A stretch of 33,139 nt of DNA, taken from IMG/VR virus record IMGVR_UViG_2703719355_000019. One strand, 5' to 3'. Each line of letters opens with the position of its first letter. The stretch's first letter is position 1. Both the position numbers and the translations under genes were made by a program. Below the pieces are notes generated by a model. That model saw only the letters and a program-made list of their open reading frames with translations, had not been told where the DNA came from and made no database searches. Source of the stretch: a virus (lineage: Duplodnaviria; Heunggongvirae; Uroviricota; Caudoviricetes). Below are positions 354-854 of this stretch, in pieces.

Positions 354-506
354 TCCAACATTAGACAAATAACTCTTTAAGTTGCCTTTAAATTAATACC
401 AGCACCGCGCCGGATGTCATCTGGCCTGAACTGCCGGAGGCGTAGGCCATTCAATATCTGGAGCACTGGAGGTATCAACCAGTTCCAGTGCGTCCAGATA
501 ATCCAG

Positions 507-854
507 TCACAAATTATATTGCGCCAGTTCCTCACCTTTCAGACGACCAATAGCTGCTTTACCTGGCCATTGCCTGTTATTCATGTGCTCATTGGCAGTA
601 TCTATGCGCCGCTGACGCTCGTATTCTGCCATCTTTATCAGTTCTTCAGGTGCCAGTGGCGGAATATCACTCCATACGGGATAACCATCATCACCCGCAA
701 TCCTCATTTTTCCCTCCGGTGGCTTCTGAAATGCAACAAAAGTCTCTTCATCAACTTCCACGCCTTTTTCGGGCCACATCCCTGCCGCCTCATAGTCTGC
801 CTGCATTGCTAATGGATAAAATGCGTTAGTTACTGCGTCGTATAAATATTTCAT
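507..854 (-). CDS. tail fibre assembly protein, N-terminal 115 aa; interrupted by in-frame TGA at 507-509, frame continues to 417
   Basis: Starts MKYLYDAVTNAFYP and ends ..GRLKGEELAQYNL then TGA; the same frame continues LDYLDALELVDTSSAPDIEWPTPPAVQAR, the typical C-terminus of enterobacterial tail fibre assembly proteins. Confidence 0.7.
   Translation of the reverse strand: MKYLYDAVTNAFYPLAMQADYEAAGMWPEKGVEVDEETFVAFQKPPEGKMRIAGDDGYPVWSDIPPLAPEELIKMAEYERQRRIDTANEHMNNRQWPGKAAIGRLKGEELAQYNL

Follow-up and report, generated by a model that had tools for sequence, protein, structure and literature searches.

An opal nonsense allele of a tail fibre assembly gene in a Mu-like Escherichia coli prophage

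The stretch of DNA analysed here (the window, 33,139 nucleotides, IMG/VR record IMGVR_UViG_2703719355_000019) is, by its gene content, a Mu-like transposable prophage of E. coli. Along with the transposase and the MuB-like ATPase given in Table 1, it possesses genes for Mor, holins, an endolysin, a terminase, a portal and a gpT-type head protein, and the tail genes for the sheath, the tape measure and the gp45/46/47/48-type baseplate proteins. The window was taken from a contig of a short-read draft assembly (GCA_001286505.1) which ends 42 nt past the dinI-like gene. The right end of the prophage is situated beyond the contig end and the left end is outside the window. E. coli 47-1826 contains a counterpart of window positions 23347-1662 with 99.6% identity, inserted in the ynfE/F region, and the Mu-like backbone is also present in about 55 other complete E. 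coli genomes. A megablast search of 50,697 phage records with 25 kb of the window found no relative of this backbone at the DNA level, and the matches in these records were limited to the short tfa and dinI modules. All late genes which are common to the window and the 47-1826 counterpart are either identical or retained as full-length ORFs in the window, and the genes from the holins to the baseplate as well as the transposase and the MuB-like ATPase are undisrupted in this comparison. Unlike the late region, the early region (window 23641-28315) is a mosaic compared to 47-1826, with blocks of 92-97% identity and with several small genes replaced.

The tail fibre gene (1960..857) ends 2 nt before the start of tfa at 854. 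The same fibre-to-tfa order was observed in all the related loci, and the 367-aa fibre is presumed to be the client of the adjacent Tfa. The first ~100 codons of the fibre gene belong to the Mu-like backbone while the remainder is part of an exchangeable cassette. In BLAST comparisons, the match of the backbone to locus L007 ends at 1662 and the match of the cassette to loci L001 and L005 starts at 1765. The 367-aa fibre architecture along with an intact tfa was also found in L015. Copies of the cassette with 98.8-99.5% identity were found in prophages of the Mu-like and the e14-like (prfC-adjacent) type as well as in prophage remnants. Cassettes possessing TGG at the codon discussed below were found on the same Mu-like backbone in L015 (99.5% over 5.5 kb), in an e14-like prophage beside prfC in L009, L011 and L013, and in the remnants of strain 33-6, L010 and L018. 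Overall, the cassette has been exchanged among at least three backbones, the Mu-like one, the e14-like one near prfC and a third baseplate type (L012, L017), and its break points are sharp (1662-1768 and 396).

Downstream of tfa, most of the intact relatives contain an inverted tfa', an inverted alternative fibre tip and a resolvase-family invertase, and this arrangement is a host-range switch of the G-segment type. The cassette of these relatives matches the invertible arrangement of the Mu G segment (Gin) and the e14 P segment (Pin). Unlike these segments, the window has no inverted half or invertase, and no host-range switch is visible in it. As tfa directly abuts dinI at a junction near 396, which is the type found in the remnants, and the invertible half is missing, the switch appears to have been deleted in the window. 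The missing part, which would lie at about 250-396 of the window, includes a protease gene (compare L009 5410-8450 and L007 34644-36188). A LexA-box-like palindrome, TACTGTGTTTGTATACAGTA, is positioned directly upstream of the dinI-like gene outside the window (L004 10866-10885), and the contig ends a few bases beyond it.

Table 1. Positions of the fibre cassette, the tfa gene, its stop codon and other features in the window.
Feature	Position	Strand	Basis or remark
DinI-like gene, convergent with tfa	1..249	+	PF06183, E 1e-19
Exchangeable fibre-tip and tfa cassette	396..1765	.	BLAST break points, gene contexts
In-frame continuation of tfa, 29 codons and natural stop TGA at 419..417	417..506	-	Translation, gain in Pfam match
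Premature opal codon TGA at Trp116	507..509	-	G-to-A transition on the coding strand, position 507
tfa 5' part, 115 codons and premature TGA	507..854	-	ORF list, translation, PF02413 match
Tail fibre gene, 367 aa, Gp53-like C-terminal domain	857..1960	-	PF21882, E 8e-11
MuB-like ATPase	29949-30842		
Transposase, Mu-type	30861-32903		

The tfa ORF opens with the ATG at 854 and encodes a product of 115 aa (recorded as CUA32921.1) which ends with ELAQYNL and is followed by the TGA at 509..507, in the context UUG-UGA-C-UG. The zero-frame continuation past this TGA reads LDYLDALELVDTSSAPDIEWPTPPAVQAR, up to the second TGA at 419..417. The original prediction had given these coordinates, the end of the product and both stops, and translation reproduced them exactly. 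It had also claimed that the continuation is the conserved C-terminus of the family and that the TGA replaces a TGG codon for Trp, on which the following comparisons bear. An open run of 29 codons has a probability of (61/64)^29, or about 0.25, by chance and is hence not significant alone; its significance comes from homology and not from its open length. The 115-aa product matched Caudo_TAP (PF02413) with an E value of 3e-18 and 66.7 bits over profile positions 3-104 of 131. With Trp at the stop position, the 145-aa read-through product matched the same profile with an E value of 5.8e-33 and 114.3 bits over positions 3-130 of 131. Both the products score above the gathering score of 22.1, and the 30 restored residues add 47.6 bits. 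The primary product, which ends at profile position 104 of 131, lacks the complete C-terminal module of the family; what it retains is the variable N-terminal domain together with roughly half of the helical region that is conserved at the C-terminus. On the basis of these profile matches, tfa is assigned to Caudo_TAP by descent, with a predicted product that is truncated. It belongs to the same family as lambda Tfa, Mu gpU/TfaMu and P2 gpG, is likewise situated downstream of a fibre gene, and has the same two-part build of a variable N-terminal domain and a conserved helical module ending in VDTSxAPDIxWP. Unlike the intact members, the window product stops within this module.

Among 5,426 complete E. 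coli genomes, strain 33-6 is the nearest relative, and it differs from the window across tfa by a single base, which gives TGG in place of TGA. The more distant tfa alleles of E. coli strains 181.1 and A41 likewise have TGG. The 145-aa read-through sequence with Trp is identical at every residue to an E. coli protein recorded on 88 contigs. In a set of homologue cluster representatives spanning 60-99% identity, all the 119 sequences have Trp in the stop column and all extend to query position 141-145, while none of them ends near residue 115. Trp116, Leu117, Asp118, Tyr119, Pro132 and Trp136 are invariant in the homologues. Both claims on the codon and on the continuation were thus borne out, and a natural end at this point, which would have spoken for an intact short protein, was seen in 0/119 representatives. 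Judged from these comparisons, tfa carries a true, rare and derived opal nonsense allele, Trp116 TGG to TGA.

The allele is rare in all the collections searched. The 61-mer centred on the codon matches 1,954 places in the 5,426 complete E. coli genomes, and none of these places has the exact TGA version; the best of them differ by one mismatch (identity class 98.4%). An exact TGA 38-mer gave no matches in GTDB species representatives, IMG/VR and JGI metagenomes. A degenerate TGA 26-mer, which would catch TGA at the Trp codon in any tfa allele sharing the WLDYLDAL motif, also gave no matches in GTDB representatives, IMG/VR and JGI metagenomes, while its TGG version gave at least 120 matches in IMG/VR alone. 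As the TGA patterns are unmatched in these collections, the stop is neither conserved nor recurrent.

The exact 115-aa product was found on three records, compared to 88 contigs for the exact 145-aa product. One is CYGN01000014.1 of GCA_001286505.1, the source contig of the window and 100% identical to it. Another is a contig of the Logan assembly of run ERR178211 (L006), which is 100% identical over 1,288 nt and comes probably from the same isolate. The remaining one is scaffold_1381 of the ENA metagenome ERZ28629202 (L005), in which tfa is identical including the TGA. The scaffold differs from the window at eight sites in the fibre gene, possesses a baseplate backbone other than that of the window upstream, and contains an inverted second tfa-like gene in place of dinI downstream of tfa. 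Over window positions 396-1660, the window and L005 are alone in having A at position 507, where the eight relatives with TGG have G. Since the TGA is shared by these two and the window has private substitutions, it is judged to have arisen once, before the two carriers diverged, and to have been sequenced independently in each. The private substitutions, which are absent from L005 and all the others, are at 1543 and 1614 and both are non-synonymous in the fibre gene; the corresponding codons 140 and 116 of the fibre encode Val140 and Gly116 in the window against Ile and Asp in 9/9 related cassettes.

The position of the cut was analysed in an AlphaFold2 model of the intact protein P0008, which differs by V40A only (mean pLDDT 91). 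It is composed of a beta-rich N-terminal domain (1-63), three helices (69-93, 96-101 and 107-124) and an extended tail. Residue 116 falls midway along the last helix, half of which is taken away by the truncation along with the VDTSxAPDIxWP tail. The mean frequency of the top residue is 0.86 at residues 116-145, compared to 0.63-0.70 at residues 1-90, and the removed segment is the best-conserved part of the family. The N-terminal domain gave no significant fold match to solved structures, which fits the N-terminal variability of the family. Foldseek search of the model against PDB gave a best E value of 1.6, with the Pam3 fibre 7ypx at 4.1, and the sole phmmer match of the tfa product to PDB sequences was spurious (E 0.2). 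The entry for the N-terminal domain of Mu Tfa (PDB 5YVQ) was not among the Foldseek or phmmer matches, the N-terminal domain being non-conserved in the family. As summarised from North et al. 2019 in PMC9608196, Tfa is modular, with an N-terminal domain which lacks conservation and attaches to the fibre tip and a conserved helical C-terminal domain responsible for trimerisation and assembly. Translation of the window allele would mostly stop at UGA116 and yield the 115-residue protein, which may still bind the fibre but would be unable to drive its trimerisation. Fibre maturation would then be lost or strongly reduced, and the particles formed on induction would be poorly infective or non-infective. 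Such a loss of function is the most likely consequence on the basis of family conservation and secondary literature, and the last 30 residues may matter less in this protein than their conservation in the family implies.

Some full-length Tfa may still be formed. No other stop codon of E. coli is as leaky as UGA, for which PMC4989110 gives readthrough of 1e-2 to 1e-3. In K-12 BW25113, the competition between Trp-tRNA(Trp) and RF2 results in readthrough of about 2% at 37 C and of about 4% at 25 C (PMC10570021). According to PMC5373646, RF2 of K-12 is unusually weak, and the strains with B-type RF2 described there were without detectable extension products. Near-cognate decoding of UGA, which in E. 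coli amounts to roughly 0.1-4%, would reinsert the ancestral Trp, and because it is Trp-tRNA(Trp) which reads UGA, each misreading would yield a fully wild-type Tfa. Rare decoding of this kind would supply a small amount of wild-type protein and make the allele leaky rather than null. The readthrough level is probably lower in natural isolates than in the K-12 figures since RF2 of K-12 is unusually weak. In the termination-versus-frameshift assay of Poole et al. from 1995, UGAC reportedly gave the weakest signal, while the tRNA-Trp readthrough data of Engelberg-Kulka (1981) and Kopelowitz (1992) reportedly favour A and not C at the 3' side. The nucleotide context of the UGA gives no lean either way, and TGAC is the ordinary stop of three other genes in the prophage. 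The sequence flanking the stop is identical to that of the TGG alleles, which argues against any evolved readthrough signal. No SECIS or other Rfam element was found beyond noise with E values up to 10, and no tRNA gene was found in the window. Matches to a sigma-70-like element at 542..513 and, weakly, to CssrB at 319..374 do not exceed chance. Frameshifting was rejected, as no change of frame is needed to reach the conserved continuation and readthrough alone could restore it. Decoding by selenocysteine or by a suppressor tRNA was also rejected in the lack of a SECIS match and of a tRNA gene in the window.

Taken together, the locus very probably holds a genuine, rare opal allele of a Caudo_TAP tfa in an exchangeable cassette of a Mu-like E. 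coli prophage, which would encode a crippled fibre chaperone and may be leaky rather than null. That the true sequence is TGG and the gene intact, with the TGA introduced by sequencing or assembly, was a possibility named in the original prediction, and the short-read draft nature of GCA_001286505.1 gives it some ground. The region of the 61-mer is also conserved and present in multiple copies in E. coli genomes, and in such modules errors can arise from repeat collapse. Against this, the metagenome scaffold with the identical TGA has other flanks and eight nearby differences and is therefore separate DNA, the separate assembler used by Logan for run ERR178211 also gives TGA, and a random error is not expected to recur at one base. 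An error is hence extremely improbable. A misplaced copy is a different matter; here the isolate would contain two copies of the cassette, with the TGA in a dead prfC-side remnant and an intact tfa in the Mu-like prophage. The junction of tfa to dinI is indeed of the type seen in the remnants (33-6, L010, L018), the same Mu-like backbone elsewhere (L015, L007) runs into an inverted tfa', and the source contig ends soon after dinI. The Logan contig stops at 1711, beside the variant site 1712, and at 424, and its ends look like branch points of an assembly graph. These branch points are in segments which are conserved among many fibre and tfa genes of prophages, so a second full cassette is not required for them. 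No TGG/TGA alternative exists within the cassette in the assembly or in the Logan contig, and the upstream join of the backbone to the 367-aa fibre is natural, being seen in L015. A misplaced copy is therefore unlikely, with some real chance left to it. As the Logan contig ends beside the variant site 1712 on one side and, at 424, inside the conserved 3' module of tfa on the other, the isolate may hold related fibre and tfa sequences elsewhere.

In the case of a harmless truncation, the 115-residue protein would still chaperone the fibre and the allele would be effectively neutral for the phage. The complete N-terminal fibre-binding domain agrees with this, and so does the persistence of the allele through two substitutions and in two contexts. 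A silent prophage gene which is unselected during lysogeny would be expected to persist just as well, and the survival of the allele through at least two later substitutions and in two flanking contexts is compatible with neutrality in a silent prophage as well as with retained function. The lost segment is the most conserved one, with the invariant W116, L117, D118, Y119, P132 and W136, it is present in every natural homologue (119 representatives), and the summary in PMC9608196 gives it the role in oligomerisation and assembly. A harmless truncation is accordingly very unlikely. Programmed readthrough or recoding, where the UGA would set the ratio of short to full-length Tfa in the manner of the Q-beta coat/A1 pair or be decoded as selenocysteine, draws on the leakiness of UGA, the exact fit of the near-cognate tRNA-Trp to the ancestral residue, the following C, reportedly the weakest termination context, and the 29 undamaged downstream codons. 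A recoding site should be conserved, and the stop is found in 0/119 representatives, 0 of ~1,950 E. coli copies and none of the three collections, whereas the TGG pattern has at least 120 matches in IMG/VR alone. Flanks equal to those of the TGG alleles, the absence of SECIS/Rfam matches and of a tRNA gene in the window, the use of TGAC at the end of three other prophage genes and the tRNA-Trp data said to favour a 3' A also speak against it, and programmed recoding is hardly credible here. A further reading is that of a 'pseudo-pseudogene', in which the UGA is tolerated and was moved between two backbones while near-cognate Trp insertion keeps the phage infective. It is highly improbable; if true, fibre assembly would depend on the RF2/RF3 status, the temperature and the growth state of the host. 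In several genomes, the other common home prophage of the cassette ends with dinI beside prfC (L009, L011, L013 8455-10438; L001 2352-3851). The prfC gene encodes RF3, a modulator of UGA termination, and the dinI-prfC adjacency is probably a coincidence of the integration site.

Of the three readings originally offered for the TGA, the nonsense mutation is thus the one which the comparisons support; a sequencing error is made unlikely by the independent scaffold and the separate ERR178211 assembly, and a site needing readthrough found no support, as the stop is conserved nowhere else. The accompanying suggestion of a defective prophage holds for tfa, which has the premature stop, and does not extend to the other late genes, every one of which is full length against the 47-1826 counterpart. 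Because each late gene common to that counterpart is identical or full length, tfa appears to be the sole visible lesion among the compared prophage genes.

Damage of this kind has parallels in other fibre modules. The tfaD, tfaS and tfaX genes in the cryptic prophages of E. coli K-12 are pseudogenes. Lambda PaPa contains a decayed tail-fibre gene, stf, disrupted by a frameshift according to PMC7291167. Like the window, these cases are otherwise recognisable phages whose fibre module has been inactivated by one lesion; compared to them, the rest of the late region is intact in the window. The side fibres of lambda are dispensable, unlike the fibres of Mu type. Amber mutants of Mu S and U are reported to show that the fibre and Tfa of Mu-type myophages are needed for infective particles, so the cost of the window lesion should exceed that of the lambda one. 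The Q-beta A1 protein and the extensions of E. coli nudL and pheL use the same codon and the same route, Trp-tRNA(Trp) against RF2. Their stops are the native, conserved ends of genes, and Q-beta needs the extension. The window UGA, unlike these, interrupts a conserved domain, is rare, derived and not conserved, and has no dedicated signal.

The tfa allele is an ordinary kind of prophage gene damage and not a new coding mechanism, and its importance beyond annotation is little. In annotation, the gene should be described as a nonsense-disrupted tfa (Trp116 to opal) and not as a normal 115-aa 'tail assembly chaperone'. Intactness calls for this isolate should record the Mu-like prophage as complete apart from a probable defect in fibre assembly. 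The allele is also a clean natural case in which the most frequent misreading of a premature stop brings back the wild-type residue, and the leakiness of UGA in wild E. coli could be followed with it as a simple in vivo reporter.
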